Below are positions 54,191 through 63,366 of a DNA stretch of 64,000 nucleotides, in pieces. The DNA is from an uncultured Solirubrobacterales bacterium. Its GTDB lineage: Bacteria > Actinomycetota > Thermoleophilia > Solirubrobacterales > 70-9. Position 1 is the stretch's first letter, and each line of letters begins with the position of its first letter. The position numbers and the translations under genes were made by a program. Below the pieces are notes generated by a model. It did no database searches. It saw nothing but the letters and a program-made list of their open reading frames with translations, and was not told where the DNA came from. The stretch spans positions 3,098 to 67,097 of the forward strand of contig CAWINX010000003.1 of assembly GCA_963837585.1 (NCBI GenBank), in the 5' to 3' direction.

Positions 54191-54252
54191 CGCAACTGAA
54201 GGCAAGGCAGGGGTTTGACTTCGAAGCACGCCCCGCGGACAGTCTGAACATG

Positions 54253-54286
54253 CCAGAGGGGGCGGCCAATTGGCCGCCCCCTCTGG
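54253..54286. terminator. Perfect 34-nt palindrome between convergent genes
   Basis: CCAGAGGGGGCGGCCAA|TTGGCCGCCCCCTCTGG, read directly. No strong U-tract. Confidence 0.45.
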
Positions 54287-54315
54287 CAATAACGCCGTCC
54301 TGAGCTTGAGCCTGC

Positions 54316-55033
54316 CTAGCCGACGGCCGTGCCGATCACATCCAGCTCGGCGCCGGTGGCGGTTACACCGCTGCCGGAGCTGCAGCTGCCACCCGCCAAA
54401 TAGACCGAGAAGGTGTGATTTGTGGCCGAGATGGGCGCGATGCTCGACATCGGAGCCGCAGGAGGCGTGAAGGGTCCGAAGTCCACACGCCTCGTCACCT
54501 CACCCGAGCCTTTGTCGATCAGGTAACCGTATCCGACGATCTCCGGCGGAGCCGGCGAGCCGGGGTTCGCCGCGTCCTTGAGCAAGTAGGCCAGCGCCGA
54601 CCGCGGCTGCACGCAGCCGGCGTCGAACTTGACGTCGAACGCCGCCAGATACTGGTCGTCACGACCAGTCGGTTGAGTGTAGGTCGCGTTGTTGAACGGA
54701 TAGACCTGGCCTCCGGTGAACGGAACCGAGGAGTTGCCCCGCAACTTCTCGACCAACTGGGAAAACACGGTGGTCGGAGCGTTGATCTTGGCGCCGGTGA
54801 CTGCCTTGTTCTTGATCTTCGCGGTGGTGATCGCGTTTCTCTTGATCTTCGCGGTGGTGATCGCGTTCCGCTTGATCTTGGCCGTGGTCACCGCGTTCTT
54901 CTTCAGCTGCTTGGTGCCGACGCTGTTCTTGCCGAGGCCGGCCGCAATCGCGGTCGCGCCGCCGAGGACGAGGAACACAGCGAGGGACGACATCACGTTC
55001 GCGATACGTGAGTCGCTTGCGAATCTGCTTCAC
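54316..55033 (-). CDS. Secreted protein with N-terminal 10-aa tandem repeats (KNAVTTAKIK x4); apparent 1-nt insertion near 55002-55006
   Basis: MKQIRKRLTY is in ORF 54659..55033. It is followed by VMSSLAVFLVLGGATAIAAGLGKNSVGTKQLKKNAVTTAKIKRNAITTAKIKRNAITTAKIKNKAVTGAKI in ORF 54316..54996. The 30-bp DNA repeats lie at about 54790-54910. Confidence 0.65.
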
Positions 55034-55163
55034 GAGAACTCCTTCGGTTGGGAAACGAGAATGGCGCCGAGTGGACGAGAGGCGATCCCCTACTCAATTT
55101 CGCCGATCGGCTGCACCCTCGCAGGTTCGCCGATCCGCGTGCAAGCGGAGGCGGACGGGCGGC

Positions 55164-56216
55164 TCAGCCGCGGCGCTCGGCCTCGTCGGCCGCCTCGGCG
55201 AGGCGCTCGACCAGGCGCGCAAACGCCTGGATTCCCGGGTCGACCTCGCCGTACTGGCCGGCCGCGTAGCGCGCGTAGACGCCCTCGAGGATGATCGCCA
55301 GCTTCCAGTAGCCGAGGGCGACGAAGAAGTCGAGCTCGGAGAGGTCGCGGCCGGAGCGCTCCGCGTAGCGGGCCTTCAGCTCCTCGCGGGTCGGGAAGCC
55401 CGGCGCCAGGTTGGCGGGCTGGCCGAGCGCGATCGTCTCCTCGCCGCGCTCGGGCCAGTAGACCATCAGCAGGCCGACGTCGGCGAGCGGGTCGCCGAGC
55501 GTGCAGAGCTCCCAGTCGACCACCGCGGCGACCTCGCCGCTCGGCGCCAGGATCATGTTGTCGAGCCGGTAGTCGCCGTGGACGATCGTCGCCGGGCCCT
55601 GTTCGGGGATGCGGGCGGCGAGTCGCTCGTGCACCTCGTCGACCGCCGCCAGCTCGCGGGTCTTCGACTTCTCCCACTGCCCGTGCCAACGGTGCAGCTG
55701 GCGAGCGACGTAGTCCTCCTTGCGGCCGAGGTCGCCGAGGCCAACCGCGTCGGGGTCGACCGCATGGATCGCGACCAGGGTGTCGGCGACGCGCTCGCCG
55801 ATCGCCCGCCGGTCGGCCTCGTCGGGGAAGGCATCGGCCTCGGCAAGCCCGCGCAGGATCGGCCCCTCGACGAACTCCATCGCGTAGAAGGGAGCGCCGT
55901 TGACGCTCTCGTCCTCGCAGAGCCCGACCACCGGAGCGACGGGCACCTCGGTGCCCCCCAGCGCCGAGACGACCTTGTATTCGCGCCCCATGTCGTGGGC
56001 GGAGCCGAGTCGCTTGCCCAGCGGCGGCCGGCGCAGCGCCCAGCGGCGGCCGGCGGCGTCGGTCACCCCGTAGGTGAGGTTCGAGTGGCCGCCGGCGATC
56101 CGCTCGAAGGAGAGGGGCAGAGCGACCTCGGGGACGTGCTCGGCGAACCACCCCTCGACCCCCGCCCGGTCGATCCCCTCCGGGGCGTCGGCGGTGCGTG
56201 TAGCCTCGTCCTCCAT
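55164..56216 (-). CDS. Aminoglycoside-phosphotransferase-fold kinase (APH/ACAD10-11-associated type)
   Basis: ATG at 56216 within ORF 55164..57158. GGHSNLTYGV, IVHGDYRLDNMIL (catalytic loop) and VVDWELCTLGDPLAD. Confidence 0.85.
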   Translation of the reverse strand: MEDEATRTADAPEGIDRAGVEGWFAEHVPEVALPLSFERIAGGHSNLTYGVTDAAGRRWALRRPPLGKRLGSAHDMGREYKVVSALGGTEVPVAPVVGLCEDESVNGAPFYAMEFVEGPILRGLAEADAFPDEADRRAIGERVADTLVAIHAVDPDAVGLGDLGRKEDYVARQLHRWHGQWEKSKTRELAAVDEVHERLAARIPEQGPATIVHGDYRLDNMILAPSGEVAAVVDWELCTLGDPLADVGLLMVYWPERGEETIALGQPANLAPGFPTREELKARYAERSGRDLSELDFFVALGYWKLAIILEGVYARYAAGQYGEVDPGIQAFARLVERLAEAADEAERRG

Positions 56217-56246
56217 AGTGGCGCAAGCATATTCAGGGGCCCTCGC

Positions 56247-57485
56247 TTGAGCCCATCGCTGGCCAACCGGCTGCGCATCGGGTTCGCGATCGCCTTCGCC
56301 CTGTTGGCCGCGATGGCCGTGATCGGCGTCGGCCGTTTCATCCAGCAGCGCCAGGACTTCGAGAACGCGATCGCCCGCTCCTACCAGGTGGAGATGGCGG
56401 CTCAGGTTCGGCTGGCCCGCGGCGTCAGGCCCCGGGCGGCCCGCGCGACGATCGCCGCCCAGCACGTCCGCCGCCAGCAGCTCAACGACAGCATCTCCGG
56501 CGACACCCGCGACACCGCGCTGCTGGTCGCCGCCGGCCTGATCGCCGGCCTGACCGGCGCCCTGCTGCTGTTCAGCGGCCTGATCGCCTCGATGCGCCGT
56601 CCGCTCGAGGAGCTGGTCGACGCGGCCGGCCGGCTCGCCGGCGGCGACCGCTCGGCCCGGGTCGAGGTCGGCGGCCTTTCGGAGACGGCGACCCTGGGCG
56701 CCGCCTTCAACGAGATGGCCGACGAGCTGGAGCGCGAGGCGGGCAAACGCGACGAGCTCGACCGGATCAAAGACGAATTCGTGCTGACCGCCTCCCATGA
56801 GCTGCGCAGTCCCCTCACCTCGGTGCAGGGCTTCGCCGAGCTGTTGATGCTGGAGCGCGAGAAGCTCAGCCCCAAGCAGGCCGAGACGGTCGAGATCATC
56901 CTCGACAACTCGCGCCATCTGGTCCGCCTCCTCAACGACCTGCTCGACCTGGCGCGCAGCGACGCCGGGCGGCTCGCGATCAAGCCGGTGCCGACCGAGG
57001 TCGGGCCGCTCGTCGAGGACGCGATCCGCACGATGCGCGCCCAGACCGAGTCCTCGGGACAAGCCCTGGAGGCGGAGATCGAGCCGGACCTGCCGCGGAT
57101 CGCCGCCGAGCCGGACCGGATTCGCCAAGTACTGGTGAATTTGCTTACCAATGCGCATGAGTACTGCCCCGAGGGGGCGTCGATTCGAGTGACAGCCGCG
57201 CGCGCCGGTGCTGAAGTGGAGATTGCCGTGATCGACGACGGACCCGGAATCCCCCCAGAGCAGATGGAGCGCATCTTCGACCGCTTCACCCGCGGTGACG
57301 CCGGGCTGACCCAGCGGGTCGGCGGCACCGGCCTCGGCCTGGCGATCTCAAAGTCCCTGGTCGAACTGCACGGCGGGACGATCGCCGCCGAGGACACGCC
57401 GGGCGGCGGCGCCACCTTCCGGGTCAACCTCCCGGTCGCGGTCGCCGGCGAGAGCCTCAGCCCCACCGGAGCGCAGAGCCGATGA
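56247..57485 (+). CDS. Sensor histidine kinase (TM-HAMP-HisKA-HATPase_c)
   Basis: C-terminal about 412 aa of ORF 55008..57485, with a TTG start at 56247 (uncertain). H-box FVLTASHELRSPLTSVQGF, N-box LLTNAHEY and G-boxes DDGPGIP and GTGLGLAISKSLVELHGG. Confidence 0.85.
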   Translation: MSPSLANRLRIGFAIAFALLAAMAVIGVGRFIQQRQDFENAIARSYQVEMAAQVRLARGVRPRAARATIAAQHVRRQQLNDSISGDTRDTALLVAAGLIAGLTGALLLFSGLIASMRRPLEELVDAAGRLAGGDRSARVEVGGLSETATLGAAFNEMADELEREAGKRDELDRIKDEFVLTASHELRSPLTSVQGFAELLMLEREKLSPKQAETVEIILDNSRHLVRLLNDLLDLARSDAGRLAIKPVPTEVGPLVEDAIRTMRAQTESSGQALEAEIEPDLPRIAAEPDRIRQVLVNLLTNAHEYCPEGASIRVTAARAGAEVEIAVIDDGPGIPPEQMERIFDRFTRGDAGLTQRVGGTGLGLAISKSLVELHGGTIAAEDTPGGGATFRVNLPVAVAGESLSPTGAQSR

Positions 57486-57853
57486 CGCCGCGAGTGCTGA
57501 TCGCCGACGACTCCGAGACGATCCTGCTGCTGATGCGGACGAGGCTGGAGATGGCGGGCTACGACGTGGAGACCGCGATCGACGGCGAAGAGGTGATGGA
57601 GGCGGTCCACCGCAGGGGGCCCGACAGCGGCCCCGACATCCTCCTGCTCGACGCGATGATGCCCCGCAAGTCCGGCATCGACGCCCTGCGAGAGCTGCGC
57701 GCCGAGGGAGTCGACACCCCCGCTCTGATCGTCAGCGCCCACCAGGACGGCGAGGACGCCGCCGCCCCCACCGACCTTGAGGTGAGTGGCTACGTGGCCA
57801 AGCCGATCGACTTCGAGGCGCTGCTGGCGAGCATCGAAGAGCTGACTCGGTAG
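57482..57853 (+). CDS. Single-domain (CheY-like) response regulator
   Basis: Intact 123-aa ORF with an ATGA overlap with the kinase. VLIADDSETILLLM...LLLDAMMPRKSGIDAL...VAKPIDFEAL. Confidence 0.9.
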   Translation: MTPRVLIADDSETILLLMRTRLEMAGYDVETAIDGEEVMEAVHRRGPDSGPDILLLDAMMPRKSGIDALRELRAEGVDTPALIVSAHQDGEDAAAPTDLEVSGYVAKPIDFEALLASIEELTR

Positions 57854-57947
57854 GGACGGCGGGCATCCCCCTCGTCTGACAAAACGCCGCCCTTATAGGG
57901 GCGGCGTTTTTGAGTATCCGCCAGCCGAGGGGGATGCCCGCCGTCCC
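57853..57947. repeat. 95-nt nested hairpin with a perfect 22-bp outer stem enclosing the terminator hairpin
   Basis: GGGACGGCGGGCATCCCCCTCG (57853-57874) and CGAGGGGGATGCCCGCCGTCCC (57926-57947) are exact reverse complements. The hairpin starts at the last base of the response-regulator stop codon. Confidence 0.85.
57881..57911. terminator. Bidirectional rho-independent terminator
   Basis: AAAACGCCGCCC-ttat-AGGGGCGGCGTTTTT has a GC-rich perfect stem flanked by an A-run and a T-run. It lies between convergent genes (RR on plus, large HTH protein on minus). Confidence 0.75.
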
Positions 57948-58017
57948 ATCAACAGAGCGCCGAGGGCTCGCGAACAGCTTCTCCCAGCGAGTGAGATGTG
58001 TCGGCCTTGAGCGTGTT

Positions 58018-61000
58018 TCAGGGACGCATGTGTTCGTCACCGATATCTGCGCGATCTAATTCGACAAACGCCAAACGTGCGTTTCGAACCCAATCCTTGA
58101 GACGTGCCTCGTCGATTGTGCCATCATCGCGACTGCCAGGGAGCCCTCTCCAGTGGTTCAGTACCCACCAGGCATGTTGAGCAAGTGCCTCGTCGTGTTT
58201 GCCCAGCTGCCGGCGTGGTTGCATTCTTGCCGCGATAAACCCGTGATACCAGATCAACAAAAATGCCAGGATCGTTAGCCAGTAGGGAATAGAGCGCCCG
58301 AGGACGACGACGACTGTGTTCCAAGAGACGGAAGAAAGCAAACTCGTAACGAGCGAGTTTGTCTGCTGAGTACTTTTTAGTTTCAAGGAAGTCGAGCAAG
58401 ACTCCGATTTCATAGCCCGGAGACTGCGAGGGCGCATCGTCCTGATCTGAAACCAGCGCGGCATCGAGAACCTGCTCGACTAGCTCGATCTCGATGGCCG
58501 CAGGTTTTTCCTTCGTTCCATGAAGGACTGCCGTCAGCATGTCAACGGCTGACCAGGGACGATCGTGACGAAGTAGCTCCTGAGTCGCGTACTCGGCATC
58601 TTGCTCCTTTACGCGCCAGGGGTTCATGGACGACCAGTAGGCATCCGAAAGGTCCGGCTCCTGTCCTCTGATGGCGTCCCATAGCTCACGGGTTGCCGGG
58701 GCGGCCAGCGCCAAGGCATTACGCCGCCTGAGACTTTTTGCCTCGGGCCGTTCCATAATTTCAAGCAGCCAGGGAACCCCGTGCTCGCTGAGTTTGCGTG
58801 AAGCCCAACCCTGAGCAACGTTGCTAAGTGCGGCTTTGTTTGAATCGAGCCACCCCATTAGGTTCCCGGTCAGTTCGTCAGGAGCCACCTCGCCGACAAC
58901 CCAACCCAGCTGGTTCGGTGCGGTACTTCGTTCGGCTAACGCCTGCAAGCCATCAAGGGAGGCAGAATCGAGCGTTTCCTTGACGGCCTGGACGCGCAAT
59001 TCAGCTAGCTTCTGGTCATATCCGTCGTCATTCAGGTCCACATCTGGAAGGTCTGGGTGCCAGTCGAACAGGTAGCCGAAGCGAGCAACGTCGGATTTTG
59101 GCTCAAGTTGATCGGCGATGGCTTGCATGCGCGACAATGGTTGCTCGCCCATTGACCAGTCAGCGGATGGGAACTTGCGATGGCGCGCGATCTCTCGATC
59201 AATTCGCTCCCATAGCTCGAGTCGATCTGCGGGCGTAAAGGCTGCTGAATCGACAAACTGTTCCAGGGACTCAAGCAAACGCTCACGCTCGGCAGGTGGC
59301 AGGGGTCCGAAGAACTCGCTGAGCTTTGCCCAGCGTTGGGAGTCGGTACCGGCTAGTTGGATTGCTAGTCCAACGAGCTGGCTAATGAATCCAACCCAGT
59401 CGGCCGCCAAGACGTTACGGTTTTCCGGCTTCCAATCGTGGAACTTTGGTGAGGAAGGCGGAGACGCAATGGCATGGTTGCTTGGCCAAAGCTCAAGTAC
59501 CAACTCCCATGCAACTTCCGGTTGCTGGCTGCCGATTTGCTCAAGCGCCTGAACCTTGGCGTCCATTGAGGCTGATGTATGTCGAATCCAACCCACCAGC
59601 ACGGACGCCAGGCTCGCCAAGGGGCGGTTAGAGAGTTGGCCTCCGGGATCAATTGCGGAAAGCCTTGCTAGAGCGCGCGTGGCATCGAATAGGTAGTCTG
59701 GCGACCAGCAAAGAACCTCAAGTGCCCACAACAGCCCGGTATGCGGCGATGAACTGAATAGCGCCGAGGTCTGCTCACCGTCTTGAAAGGTAATTCTCAG
59801 TACCGGTTGGTCACGATCTAGATCAACATGGACAGCATCCAGAAACTCCTCAGGTGCGGCCTCCGCAAGAAGTCGGAGCTCCTCTGAGAGAGAGCACCAA
59901 GTCCGTCCGCTCGAATCATCATTTGCACGGCTGAGAATCTCCCGCACAGCGCGGCGTGCGTGGTCGACACCACTCGCCCCGTCTGCGAGCGTCGCAGCAC
60001 CGGAGGCTGACCCGAGCAGCGCAATCCCTTGAGCCATTCCCTGTCGTAGGACCGACGAATGCTTGCGGACCGCGCCTCGCAGGCTGGCCATCGGTCGATG
60101 ATTCGGCTCCAGTTCGAGCTTCGGGTCTGCTTCCAGCAGAACCTCGGTGACTGCTTCGTACCACCGGGCCAGATCGGTAGCGGTTAGGGCGTCTCGAAGG
60201 AGGAGGAAGGCCTCGTCGGCCGACGTCAGGTGCCACTGCGAACCTGGATGGACAAAAGGTGGATCATCCATCGTCAGCCAATGCAGCAGGTCACGCTCAA
60301 TTGTGGGCCATGACTTGTCCACCACCCGACTCACGATGTCTAGGTCATTCTCGTTTGTCTCCCATGCTCCAACTAGCACGAGAGGCGCGAAGGTCGATGC
60401 GTCCGGAGGCTGCGACCACGCGGGGCGCGCGAAAGCCGGATCGCGTGCCAGCTTACGAATCAGAGACGGCATGCTTCGGCGCGCCTGGGCAGCCAGACGG
60501 TATGCGGCATCCGAGTCCGCGCCAGCGGCATCGAGAACGGACTCGAGCGCTTTCGTCGCAGCCTCTCTGTCTGGGCGCGGGAGGTTTATGTGCTCCCCCT
60601 GCACAACTTGCTCCCAGCGAAGCGGCACGACAACGTAATGTCCGTGTTCGATCGCAGAGGAGAAGTTAGCCCCGTCGAACATCGGCAAGAGCGTCATTCG
60701 CCCGGGTTGCACCACCACGCGATCCCAAACCTCTTCCGATGAGACAACGAGGGGCGGCTGAGGACTGTGGCCCTCTCGACCCATCATCTCGATCGTCGCG
60801 CAAACGAACGCTATGGCATCGTCGCGCCATGCCGCCTGGACAGCGACAACTTCGGGGTGTTCTCGAAGGAATTTTGCCAGCCGATCACTCTCGTACGTTC
60901 GCCCTGCAAGGAAGAGGCTCCCCGGAAGTTCGGGCTCAGTCCGGGCCTGGAAGCGCTGCCACCACTGCTCCAGCGTTTCGACATCTCGTGGCCGGCGCCC

Positions 61001-61297
61001 CAGTTGCTCCGAGATCCACTGATGTACGGCCGGTGTCTGTTGGAGCCAGCCCCGTAGCTGCGTGCGTCCAATCTCGGGGTCAATCGAGCCGCGTTCCTCG
61101 CCAAGCCCGGATGCCACGCGTCGCCTCGTTGGTCCGAAGCAAGCGCATCCGCAACGCAGGAACCGGGAACCGGGAACTCGCGCCGACTGGAGGATGCCCT
61201 CTCTCGCCCAGTTGCGAACCGTGTTCTCATGCACTCCTAGGCGTCGCGCGGTCTCGCGGACATTAAGGAAATCGCCGCCGGTTTCGTCTACAATCAT
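58018..61297 (-). CDS. Large (about 1,090 aa) protein with N-terminal MerR/excisionase-type HTH and an uncharacterised helical body; apparent frameshift near 58200-58240
   Basis: ORF 58124..61297 (1057 aa) starts MIVDETGGDFLNVRETARRLGVHENTVRNWAREGILQSARVPGSRFLR (HTH_17-like). The plausible C-terminus (...DEALAQHAWWVLNHWRGLPGSRDDGTIDEARLKDWVRNARLAFVELDRADIGDEHMRP) continues in ORF 58018..58464. I saw no Walker A, nuclease, SIR2 or TIR motif. GC is visibly lower than in the flanks. Confidence 0.7.
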
Positions 61298-61304
61298 GCT
61301 ATTA

Positions 61305-61312
61305 TGATATCA
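61305..61312. promoter_or_regulatory. TGATATCA palindrome in the AT-rich divergent intergenic region
   Basis: It lies in the 61-nt AT-rich gap between the large HTH gene start (61297) and ORF 61359. Candidate autoregulatory operator. Position-based only. Confidence 0.25.
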
Positions 61313-61358
61313 GAGAATGTGGACTTTGTGATAACCTTAGGGATATGGCGGTTGAACG

Positions 61359-61556
61359 ATGAGTTCCTCAAGCAAGGGCCTGGGCTTGCGCCGAGAAGAG
61401 CGTGAACTTTTCTTCTGGACTGCTCGTCAGGTGCTCAAGCTCGTTACCTGGACGGCTTTGACGATCTACTTCGTGCTGTCGCTGGTCCACGGAAAACCCG
61501 CCGGAATGCGCGAGCTGCTGGATTGCACCTCGCCGATCGTTGCGCTGTCTCGCTAG
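61359..61556 (+). CDS. Hypothetical 65-aa protein with one TM helix
   Basis: ORF MSSSSKGLGLRREERELFFWTARQVLKLVTWTALTIYFVLSLVHGKPAGMRELLDC..., divergent from the large HTH gene. The SD is weak and coding status is uncertain. Confidence 0.3.
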   Translation: MSSSSKGLGLRREERELFFWTARQVLKLVTWTALTIYFVLSLVHGKPAGMRELLDCTSPIVALSR

Positions 61557-61878
61557 GACTGGTCGAGCCGAGTCAGTCGCTCCTTGATCTCAGGGTTTCG
61601 AAAACTGACACATCAGGCCCCGCAGAATTCGAACCTGTGACCTGTTCGTAGACCGATCCGGGAATCGAGCCGCTTTCGACACAGCCAAGCGACATCTTTC
61701 TGAAGGCTCGTAACTTGCGGGACGGGTGCCCGTAACTCGGGCGCTTGTGGGGCCGGTCGGGGGTGTCATCCGGGTGCGGCGGTCTCTTTTTCGCACTGAT
61801 CGACTCAGCGAGAGACGTCCAACTTAAAGGCGAAAAAGGCAGCACTCGGAGGACACCCCCGACCGGCCCTTCAACCAC
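61557..61878 (-). other. Structured non-coding tract with degenerate tRNA-like T-loop motifs and a ~102-nt nested stem-loop
   Basis: The minus strand contains GGTTCGAAT (about 61627-61635) and CTCGATTCC (about 61659-61667), but neither sits in a foldable cloverleaf. At 61758-61859, GGGGGTGTC/GACACCCCC (9 bp) encloses CTTTTTCGC/GCGAAAAAG (9 bp). Confidence 0.4.
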
Positions 61879-63366
61879 TCAACTCTTGGCGATCTCCAGG
61901 CGGATCTCTTTGCCTTTGAGCTTGGTTCCGTCCAAGAACTCGACCGCGTGCTCGGCGCGGTCGGGGGCGACCTCGACGAAGGAGAAGCGGTGCAGGACTC
62001 GGACGTCGTGGATCGCCTCCTCGGGGATGACCGCCCCCTCGCGCAGCGCCCAGCGCAGGTCCTCTTCGGTGATTCCGCTGCGCTCGCCGCGGTTGACGAA
62101 GAGCTTGACGCTCTTGCTCTCCTCGCCATCGCTCTTGTCCTTGTCGCTTCCGCCCTCTTCGGCCTCTGTCGACTCGGAAGGCTTGGACCGCTCGGGGCGC
62201 TCGCGGCGGCGCGGGCGCGGGGCGTGCTCGAGGCGCTCCTCGGGGCTCTCCCACTCGCCGATCGACGTTTTCACGTCGCGCTCGATGCGGCCGATCTCGT
62301 CGCGCTGGGCCGGGGTGACGAGGGTGATCGCGCGGCCGGTGCGGCCGACCCGGCCGGTGCGGCCGATCCGGTGGACGTAGACCTCGGAGGAGTCGGGGAC
62401 GTCGAAGTTGATCACGTGGGTGACGTGCTCGATGTCGAGGCCGCGCGCGGCGATGTCGGTCGCCACCAGCAGCCGCACCCGGTGGTCCTTGAAGGCGATC
62501 ATCACCCCGTCGCGCGAGCCCTGGCTCATGTCGCCGTGCAGCGCCTTGACGTCGAGCCCTTTGTCCTTCAGCGTCTTCTCCAGGCGGGAGGCGCCGATCT
62601 TGGTGCGGGTGAAGATGATCGCCTGCTCGGGCTCCTCCACCTTCAGCAGCTCGACCAGCCGCGCCGCCTTGTCCTTTGCCGGGACCTCGATGAAAGCCTG
62701 GGCGATCGCGTCGACGGTGAGCTTTTTCGGGGTGATTTTGATCGTCACCGGGTCGTACATGTAGCCCTCGGCGAGCTTCTTGATCGGCGGCGGCATCGTC
62801 GCCGAGAAGAGCGCCGTCTGGCGGCCGCTCGGGCACATCCGCAGGATCTTCTCGACGTCCTCGATGAAGCCGAGGTCGAGCATCTCATCGGCCTCGTCGA
62901 GGACGATGTAGCGCGCCGCGGTGAGGACGAGGGAGCGGCGCGACATCAGGTCCATCATCCGCCCGACCGTGGCGACGACCACGTGGGCGCCGGCCCGCAG
63001 CTGTGCCTGCTGGGATTTGATCGGCGCGCCGCCGAAGACGGCGACGATCTCGACGTCGAGGTGCTCGGCGTAGGCGCGCAGCGCCTGGGTCACCTGGATG
63101 CAGAGCTCCCGGGTGGGGGTGAGGACGACCGCCTGCACCTCGTCGTTGTCGGGGTCGAGGTACTGGAGCAGCGGCAGGCCGAAGGCGGCCGTCTTGCCGG
63201 TGCCGGTCTGCGCCTGGCCGATCACGTCGTGGCCGCCGAGCAGCTCCGGGATCGCCTGCTCCTGGATCGGGGTCGGCTCGTTGAAGCCGAGCTCGTCGAT
63301 CGCCTGCTGAATGCCCGGCGAGAGGCCGAGGTCCTTGAAGGTAATGGCAGTCTCCTCGGGGCTCAT
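61879..63366 (-). CDS. DEAD-box ATP-dependent RNA helicase with DbpA-type C-terminal RNA-binding domain
   Basis: Intact 495-aa ORF with a Q motif (FKDLGLSPGIQQAIDELGFNEPTPIQ), AQTGTGKT, DEAD (VLDEADEM), SAT and HRIGRTGRVG. The C-terminus reads KLFVNRGERSGITEEDL... Confidence 0.92.
   Translation of the reverse strand: MSPEETAITFKDLGLSPGIQQAIDELGFNEPTPIQEQAIPELLGGHDVIGQAQTGTGKTAAFGLPLLQYLDPDNDEVQAVVLTPTRELCIQVTQALRAYAEHLDVEIVAVFGGAPIKSQQAQLRAGAHVVVATVGRMMDLMSRRSLVLTAARYIVLDEADEMLDLGFIEDVEKILRMCPSGRQTALFSATMPPPIKKLAEGYMYDPVTIKITPKKLTVDAIAQAFIEVPAKDKAARLVELLKVEEPEQAIIFTRTKIGASRLEKTLKDKGLDVKALHGDMSQGSRDGVMIAFKDHRVRLLVATDIAARGLDIEHVTHVINFDVPDSSEVYVHRIGRTGRVGRTGRAITLVTPAQRDEIGRIERDVKTSIGEWESPEERLEHAPRPRRRERPERSKPSESTEAEEGGSDKDKSDGEESKSVKLFVNRGERSGITEEDLRWALREGAVIPEEAIHDVRVLHRFSFVEVAPDRAEHAVEFLDGTKLKGKEIRLEIAKS

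Follow-up and report, generated by a model that had tools for sequence, protein, structure and literature searches.

The defence system first described as PD-lambda-4 and now named Avs8 is the only described one with which the gene family considered here shows similarity. Its large protein, Avs8A, joins an Mrr nuclease to a P-loop STAND module and is activated by the HK97-fold major capsid protein, which Avs8 binds through a TPR-like sensor. Avs8B is an uncharacterised partner of Avs8A. The Walker motifs of KpAvs8 are degenerate, and in the original PD-lambda-4 paper (Vassallo) HHpred placed the NTPase of PD-lambda-4A at amino acids (aa) 224-392. The window that we analysed is a stretch of 64,000 nt from an uncultured Solirubrobacterales bacterium (assembly GCA_963837585.1, contig CAWINX010000003.1, positions 3,098 to 67,097). 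It carries a small insert with one large gene on the minus strand and a small divergent one. This insert is, with a probability of about 0.62, the decaying remnant of a probable defence gene from an Avs8-like family whose ATPase is dead.

The intact members of this family share with Avs8A, of which E. coli ECOR30 RCP47953.1 is the reference, the format of one large polypeptide. The PADLOC model PD-Lambda-4_A (PDLC03991/03990) has 1283 positions, and family members that lack a helix-turn-helix (HTH) domain measure 1,255-1,265 aa. An N-terminal nuclease and a STAND module (both predicted in the family) and a long helical sensor follow each other in the same order, two conserved motif blocks of the family are collinear with the model, and the family, too, is encoded on mobile islands, prophages and plasmids. 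KpAvs8, like the family, has degenerate Walker motifs. There are also differences. The similarity is weak and concerns distant members; for the window protein and close homologues the model gives no match. The family as examined is entirely devoid of Walker A, many members bear an N-terminal HTH, and the phylum here is Actinomycetota. The window copy has no nuclease domain and thus lacks the N-terminal Mrr-type effector that membership in Avs8A implies. No co-directional partner of ~250 aa resembling Avs8B was seen in the window or in the inspected loci, no direct Avs8B sequence search having been made; instead, the one neighbour that recurs, in a sub-clade, is a 65-aa membrane open reading frame (ORF) with divergent orientation.

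Lesions of the window copy

In the ORF list, the large gene appears as two pieces on the minus strand. The main ORF, at 58124..61297, encodes a protein of 1057 aa (P0001) and is a decayed copy from a family of ~1,330-aa proteins. A second ORF, at 58018..58464, holds an out-of-frame C-terminal piece, as seen by tblastn with the relatives P0002 and P0123. Homologous coding sequence within it is restricted to 58027-58230, which matches aa 1157-1221 of an intact relative, and with both queries the match in this other reading frame ends ...ADIGDEHM. An earlier interpretation made from the letters of the DNA, here called the sequence-only reading, had taken 58018..61297 as a single gene for an intact protein of ~1,090 aa. 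This does not hold: the interval contains two ORFs in different frames, joining them needs an assumed frameshift (a 1-nt insertion at 58221), and even after such repair the product is a truncated, internally deleted copy of a ~1,330-aa gene.

More than 386 homologues of the 1057-aa product were retrieved, and the best 120 listed are nearly all 1,320-1,335 aa in length and come from metagenome-assembled genomes (MAGs) of Actinomycetota. The 90%-identity cluster of the window gene contains two intact proteins of 1,332 aa, one of which, P0123, is encoded on locus L007 and is 90% identical over aa 215-1159. At the nucleotide level, window positions 61562-61055 correspond to L007 6899-7417 and positions 61052-58028 to L007 7810-10833. 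Between these two blocks lies a deletion junction (61052..61055, minus strand), where ~390 nt (392 nt), encoding aa ~97-214 of the intact protein, have been lost. The lost residues coincide exactly with the nuclease-like domain of intact relatives, and other relatives more than 90% identical retain the segment.

The remaining lesions lie on either side of the deletion. In the nucleotide alignment with L007, the linker that follows the HTH (61055..61160, minus strand) is decayed by indels of -13, +2, -1, +3, -2 and -1, which are net in-frame and scramble ~20 codons; the window protein reads LRCGCACFGPTRRRVAS where the relatives read LRFDARDVERLLRKRGDVIAP. At 58221..58221 (minus strand), a single C is inserted relative to the 90%-identical intact gene, causing a frameshift outside any homopolymer (AAGAATGCAACC in the window vs AAGAATG-AACC in L007). 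Finally, the homology stops at 58028 (= L007 10833) while the L007 gene continues to 11161, a loss of the last 328 nt, or ~110 codons. Both the deleted segment and these last ~110 codons were searched for across the whole window and nowhere found. Compared with a close intact homologue, the gene is thus disabled by a deletion, scrambled codons, a +1 frameshift and a 3' truncation.

The N-terminus has fared better. The MerR/excisionase-type HTH that had been recognised by eye is supported by Pfam: HTH_17 (PF12728, excisionase/MerR-like) covers aa 10-45, encoded at 61163..61270 on the minus strand, with 28.9 bits against a cut-off of 27, and scores 30-37 bits in homologues. In the latter, the same stretch is also matched by the PADLOC mad1 HTH model and by the NCBIfam excisionase and BldC HTH models. 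In the window protein and in close homologues alike, the HTH is the only domain recognised by Pfam, NCBIfam and PADLOC. The sequence-only reading was therefore right that no catalytic or NTPase motif is visible; such motifs are absent because the nuclease-like domain has been deleted here and the NTPase-like module is degenerate throughout the family.

Because the nuclease-like domain is deleted, the linker scrambled, the frame shifted and ~110 C-terminal codons lost, the window copy is most probably a recently inactivated, non-functional remnant rather than a working defence gene. Its proper annotation is that of a pseudogene remnant within a small foreign insert, and not of a new enzyme. Another assembly also has the gene in pieces: on an ENA contig of 4,679 nt, it is distributed over at least three short ORFs (P0124, P0125, P0127), with 99% identity to window aa 630-777, which could reflect more decay or long-read indel errors.

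A foreign insert at a variable junction

The base composition of the insert sets it apart from the rest of the window. In 500-nt segments, GC content is 55-64% at 58000-61750 and 63-74% in the neighbouring segments, and in 2-kb segments the insert gives the lowest values of the entire 64 kb. The interval 57948-61744 has 59.0% GC vs 69.9% in the remainder (z = -9.2 among 217 segments of equal size), and its tetranucleotide distance reaches z = 17.9. The GC content of third codon positions (GC3) is 0.615 in the big ORF vs 0.95 in the DEAD-box helicase gene, 0.93 in the response regulator (RR) gene and 0.91 in the histidine kinase (HK) gene. The drop in composition that had been claimed from inspection is thus upheld by the windowed statistics.

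A scan with the helicase assigns the window to Solirubrobacterales, and the window was compared with L008-L018, which provided nine syntenic relatives from this order (helicase identity 77-87%). All nine keep the gene order of QOR and helicase, convergent RR and HK, and an APH-like gene; none of them has the big gene at the RR/helicase junction. The site is empty in four of the nine, with 15-51 nt between the stop codons of helicase and RR. It holds 134-464 nt of hairpins in two, and 0.8-2.3 kb of unrelated cargo in the other three, namely XRE-HTH and NTase-like ORFs (L014), an ISL3-like transposase (L011) and an RTX-like repeat protein (L017). In the window, the corresponding distance is 4,025 nt, and homology to L007 spans exactly the small ORF and the big gene, with limits at 61562 and 58028. 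The tract at ~57854-61878 is foreign DNA, acquired horizontally at a junction that varies among relatives, since the nine syntenic genomes have either no insert or other DNA at this site and none carries the gene. The earlier suggestion of a horizontally acquired module is borne out by the deviant composition and by this absence, and insertions in Solirubrobacterales recur at the RR/helicase junction, a hot spot that is small and well defined.

Both edges of the insert are marked by long hairpins. The left one, at 57853..57947, directly follows the RR stop codon and had been named as a boundary in the sequence-only reading, correctly so: it has 26-nt arms that are 96% complementary, nested around an inner 15-nt hairpin and followed by a T-run, and its arm sequence occurs once in the window. 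Between it and the 3' breakpoint of the gene lies an 80-nt spacer (57948..58027) without homology to the intact relative. The right hairpin, at 61745..61874, directly follows the stop codon of the helicase gene and has 36-nt arms that are 86% complementary, again with an arm sequence unique in the window. It is separated from the small ORF by a unique spacer of 182 nt (61563..61744), in which no gene, tRNA or RNA family was detected and which had no blastn match among all fetched loci. Where decayed tRNA-like T-loops had been proposed, this second hairpin is found instead. A tRNA or att remnant at 61563-61880 was rejected: ARAGORN predicts no tRNA in the window, and a permissive 361-nt Rfam scan (E<=10, 61540-61900) gave no tRNA match. 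The Rfam matches to mir-4484, DUF3800-IV and SRP lie far below the gathering scores and reflect the long hairpin only.

The ORF list of the segment shows no integrase or transposase, in agreement with the earlier reading, and neither flanking direct repeats nor an att site were found for the insert, just the two unrelated hairpins. Long nested hairpins with 26-36-nt arms thus stand on both flanks. A similar one lies at the same junction in L015, nested hairpins also being present in L016, and the left hairpin is 74% similar to another site in L015 (coordinates listed for L015: 9464-9610 and 348-416). The flanking hairpins may belong to a REP/MITE-like hairpin family of these genomes. Near the right edge, 61660-61755 (minus strand) resembles in tblastx (32 aa, 50-53%) some Arg-rich frames that sit ~1-1.5 kb upstream of the QOR gene in L008, L010 and L018; this similarity is probably compositional.

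The second gene of the insert, at 61359..61556 on the plus strand, encodes a single-pass membrane protein of 65 aa and is divergent from the big gene. It had been proposed as a divergent single-TM ORF, and this is sustained by a single hydrophobic stretch (aa 25-43, Kyte-Doolittle hydropathy 1.89) and by homologues in the same divergent position in L007 (86%), L004-L006 (66%), L002 (34%), L115 and L132. Its dN/dS is 0.20-0.39, and L007 homology stops at 61562, just beyond its stop codon. On these sequence comparisons, the ORF is a real gene, an accessory confined to a sub-clade. As a universal partner of the big gene it was rejected, being present in just 5 of the 85 loci examined. A YaaC-like partner, the divergent neighbour of P0013 in L001, was likewise discarded, as it left no trace in the window and did not recur.

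The two genes are separated by a divergent promoter region of 61 nt (61298..61358), which was included in an alignment of the upstream regions of six loci. It contains the conserved motif ACAAAGTCCACAT at 61316-61330 (minus strand; ACAAAGTC(C/A)ACAAT in the aligned form of the six loci) and a TATCAT -10-like element. The palindrome TGATATCA (61305-61312), to which the sequence-only reading had pointed, was rejected as an operator, since it is not conserved in five related loci; the motif at 61316-61330 is the conserved one.

Two observations concern the HK side of the junction. A pair of very long antisense ORFs, 55008-57485 (plus) and 55164-57158 (minus), overlap, and the 5' part of the latter is an APH/phosphotransferase-like gene conserved in relatives. 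With the APH-like gene conserved on the minus strand, the true start of the HK gene is therefore probably far downstream of 55008. Next to them, a 226-aa ORF at 54316-54996 (minus) has tandem 'KNAITTAKIKR'-type repeats near its N-terminus and lies within a mildly low-GC patch (62-65%, ~54250-55250).

The intact family and its relation to Avs8

The family to which the remnant belongs is large. A profile search of 1.84 billion representatives returned 3,371 clusters at E<=1e-30, and the intact members span ~1,255-1,335 aa. Their commonest form is HTH-less, measures ~1,255-1,265 aa and starts at profile position ~76-80. Other members begin with HigA/XRE, HTH_31, LexA, TetR, Crp or ArsR HTHs, or with TPRs. 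In an alignment of 36 homologues, mean column identity is 61% and conservation runs from end to end. The segment deleted from the window copy is highly conserved, both in these 36 and in 149 diverse representatives of the family; its consensus in the 36 is 'FPELVRRLL...GWDG...FEFGVG..PK.KA..DY.KR...FVF.TPRRW', with D133, E152 and K162 invariant.

Two AF2 models of family members (pLDDT 84.5 and 86.0) show the order of the parts. Residues 104-222 form an alpha-beta-beta-beta-alpha-beta-alpha-beta arrangement with PD-(D/E)xK topology. An alpha/beta region (252-385), helices (389-450) and a helix with a beta-hairpin (452-498, winged helix) come next, and from ~aa 500 to the end the chain is all-helical, an alpha-solenoid of ~800 aa with pLDDT mostly >85 and a HEAT/ARM/TPR-like repeat fold. 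This order of secondary structure fits that of a nucleotide-binding domain (NBD), helical domain (HD), winged-helix domain (WHD) and repeat sensor. The order of the parts in intact members, as predicted, is an optional variable HTH, a nuclease-like domain, a STAND-like module without Walker A and a long alpha-solenoid.

In keeping with the models, aa ~97-214 would be a PD-(D/E)xK/Mrr-like nuclease-like domain and a putative effector. The predicted alpha-beta-beta-beta-alpha-beta core of intact members carries a conserved E in helix 1, a D at the start of strand 2, an E at the end of strand 3 and a K. In contrast to the canonical ExK triplet, the lysine belongs to the helix that comes next (E-x9-K); the profiles of Pfam and PDB give no match, and the domain is missing from the window copy. 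The region from the alpha/beta domain to the winged helix is likewise a candidate STAND-like module with degenerate Walker motifs. Across the 149 representatives, its motifs follow the order 'laGR ... V.a.S..EA.AF ... vv....aW ... l.LiP' and occupy the positions that the GR motif, Walker A, Walker B and the sensor have in STAND proteins. At the aligned position, Walker A (GxxxxGK[ST]) is present in 0/149, the consensus being 'V.a.S..EA.AF', and the window copy reads AVQAAWRDDAIAFV; the P-loop that defines an NTPase of the STAND superfamily is thus absent from all of them.

Foldseek comparison of both models with the PDB, which takes up the structural check suggested with the sequence-only reading, returned generic solenoids. 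The matches (CAND1, FANCI, importins, SF3B1) had a probability of 0.98-1.0 at TM-scores of 0.1-0.3, and Avs4 was the only specific one, chain 8dgf_B ranking third with the P0033 model (E = 7e-6, 1,456 columns, TM 0.15-0.17). The family resembles Avs1-4/AVAST in its predicted tripartite plan of nuclease effector, NBD-HD-WHD module and repeat sensor. It differs in that the TM-score to Avs4 is low, the remaining top matches are generic HEAT/ARM solenoids, there is no sequence-level match and the family has no functional P-loop.

At the level of profiles, PD-Lambda-4_A is matched by 7 of 36 diverse family members. Matches were also obtained with L088 (aa 632-741 = model 562-663, 27.9 bits, E = 1e-7), L090 (18.4 bits, E = 9e-5), the HTH-less P0275 (aa 137-181 = model 150-193, 21.2 bits, E = 1e-5) and P0237 (aa 535-671 = model 561-695). 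They fall into two separate regions, both collinear with the model, and the proteins equal it in length. The NTPase that Vassallo placed in PD-lambda-4A is also collinear with the degenerate module of the present family. On these sequence matches, the family is a probable distant relative of Avs8 with the same architecture, the PADLOC matches denoting relatedness and not membership.

The N-terminal HTHs suggest another parallel. They match the PADLOC capH, HTH_VI and mad1 models and NCBIfam HigA, and this likeness to CapH/HigA-type regulators and to MAD1 of MADS is consistent with a self-regulating HTH on a toxic defence gene. In contrast to CapH and HigA, the HTH of the family is covalently fused to the receptor and exchanged between clades. 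In L088 (9698-13774) and L090 (9929-14065), which are proteobacterial or prophage relatives, HTH_17 is swapped for a HigA-antitoxin-type HTH above the TIGR02607 cut-off, and L090 additionally has a divergent upstream gene for an HTH_17 protein. On the Buttiauxella plasmid NZ_CP033075.1 (L101, 2567-7667), an enterobacterial member has only 922 aa left, and immediately upstream of it lies the gene for a group II intron reverse transcriptase; it looks like another disrupted member.

The genomic neighbourhoods point towards mobile elements and defence. GmrSD/HNH genes occur at one locus together with an EcoRI methylase and a TrwC relaxase; others have an integrase with TrwC or, separately, Mrr_cat, PemK and an integrase, an LRR-Roc-COR protein, CHAT and AAA_21 genes, or an OLD-TOPRIM ATPase with an IS110 element. 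The only Mrr_cat gene among the fetched loci (L003) is N-terminally truncated. In L182 (1-19993), NERD and PLD genes stand on one side of the family gene and an Eco57I-type methylase, SNF2 and a DEAD/MZB (DUF1998) helicase on the other, which is a DISARM-like defence set. Full-length relatives at 27-28% identity occur on IMG/VR contigs, one directly upstream of the genes for the small and large terminase subunits and one adjoining a D12 methylase. Plasmid copies, annotated as HTH regulator or hypothetical protein, are known from Rhizobium, Ensifer, Cupriavidus, Shewanella, Arthrobacter and Adhaeribacter, 32 of 64 on conjugative plasmids. GenBank phage genomes yielded one partial match only, so the family is no common phage gene. 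A defence role of the family is plausible.

Alternative readings and significance

We propose that the insert brought a two-gene module, namely the small membrane-protein gene and the divergent gene of the large family. By analogy with Avs, the solenoid of intact members would bind a conserved phage protein, upon which the protein would oligomerise and the nuclease would be released. The N-terminal HTH probably autoregulates its own gene. The window copy would be inactive through the loss of its nuclease-like domain and conserved C-terminus. The sequence-only reading had named large HTH-fused proteins of this kind as defence candidates; the idea is plausible for the family, given the defence neighbours and the weak PD-Lambda-4_A matches, but the window copy is broken.

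Several points weigh against this proposal. A dN/dS of 0.138 against L007, a rough measure that compares with 0.09 for an intact-intact pair, indicates mainly purifying selection, so that either the inactivation is recent, with which the value is compatible, or the truncated protein retains some function. The contig probably stems from a long-read metagenome assembly, so that a sequencing error could account for the single-base frameshift; for the deletion and the 3' truncation, an error is unlikely. The Avs8 link depends on weak local matches (9.6-28 bits) in more distant members, whereas the window protein, P0002, P0013 and P0040 match only HTH models in PADLOC at E<=1, and Avs8A entered the comparison as a PADLOC profile and published descriptions, not as its true sequence or structure. 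For the family core, Pfam, NCBIfam and PDB sequence searches give only the HTH: the alignments A1 and A6, of 36 sequences each, retrieve nothing but the HTH from PDB profiles, and in distant members, too, Pfam and NCBIfam detect just HTH variants. Predicted topology and motif position are the basis for assigning the nuclease and the STAND module, with no significant profile or domain-level structural match, and the putative defence activity is suggested by architecture and context.

A first, tentative alternative keeps much of the proposal. In it, the family would be a separate, uncurated class of Avs-like pattern-recognition nucleases that work without NTP hydrolysis and often bear an exchangeable HTH for regulating themselves; its Actinomycetota branch, at times accompanied by the 65-aa membrane protein, would sense a phage trigger other than capsid, and the window copy would be a natural effector-less derivative. 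Such a class would comprise more than 3,000 clusters at 50% identity, for which Pfam and NCBIfam hold no model.

It is unlikely that the truncated product is made and functions as an HTH-sensor devoid of effector, for example as a repressor of the small gene, a decoy or a dominant-negative sensor. The promoter region, upstream motif, start codon and HTH are all intact, the 1,057-codon frame is open in spite of six small indels, the low dN/dS given above points the same way, and purifying selection acts on the small ORF, which is intact. The gene has nevertheless acquired lesions of four independent classes, it lacks both the invariant ~110 aa of the C-terminus and the N-terminal domain that is most conserved, and no other member seen has this architecture; a freshly inactivated gene also stays open by chance for a time.

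That the whole family consists of transcriptional regulators, or of maintenance and control proteins of mobile elements, whose link with islands merely reflects carriage, is improbable. The recurrent N-terminal HTHs of many kinds (HTH_17, HigA/XRE, LexA, TetR, Crp, ArsR) would suit such a role, as would the frequent integrases and TrwC relaxases nearby and the plasmid copies, half of them (32/64) conjugative; some STAND proteins do act as regulators (MalT, AfsR). Yet the commonest form has no HTH, the conserved core opens with a nuclease-like domain with invariant acidic and lysine residues, the one described family showing similarity is Avs8A, and the neighbours include dedicated defence genes (DISARM-like, OLD, CHAT, GmrSD, Mrr).

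We also give little credence to the view that the gene is intact in the organism and that its lesions are an artefact of long-read metagenome assembly or of the collapse of a strain mixture. The nearest genomes are indeed long-read 'MFD' MAGs, the ENA members of the same 90% cluster come as ORF fragments of 80-773 aa, a pattern that indel errors would produce, and the frameshift concerns one base. A 392-nt deletion, six indels that net in-frame and a clean 3' breakpoint followed by unrelated DNA are atypical of base-calling errors, however; the inserted base is outside a homopolymer, and the native genes on the flanks have uninterrupted frames with GC3 >0.9. In the original view, the gene would encode a novel and intact protein of ~1,090 aa in which an HTH is fused to an unrecognised catalytic domain and which acts in defence or abortive infection; the lack of a catalytic motif in the window copy and the island context speak for it. 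This view is very improbable, as deletions relative to homologues of 1,320-1,335 aa account for both the length and the motif content, the frame needs repair and the P0123/L007 comparison contradicts it.

With the decaying remnant of a probable defence gene thus preferred, the locus itself is of modest interest, and the family is the more interesting lead. A large group of ~1,300-aa proteins, labelled only as 'helix-turn-helix domain-containing' or 'hypothetical' and distributed over Actinomycetota, Pseudomonadota, Bacteroidota, plasmids and prophages, seems to be related to the capsid-sensing Avs8 receptors, its own ATPase module being dead. If this is true, STAND-type innate immunity would extend to many soil actinobacteria, and the family would offer a natural test of whether such receptors function without nucleotide hydrolysis. 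The recurrent HTH fusions would then represent a theme of self-regulation of a toxic receptor. Should the family form a separate class of Avs-like nucleases, as the tentative alternative has it, the window copy would illustrate how Avs-like receptors become disarmed.

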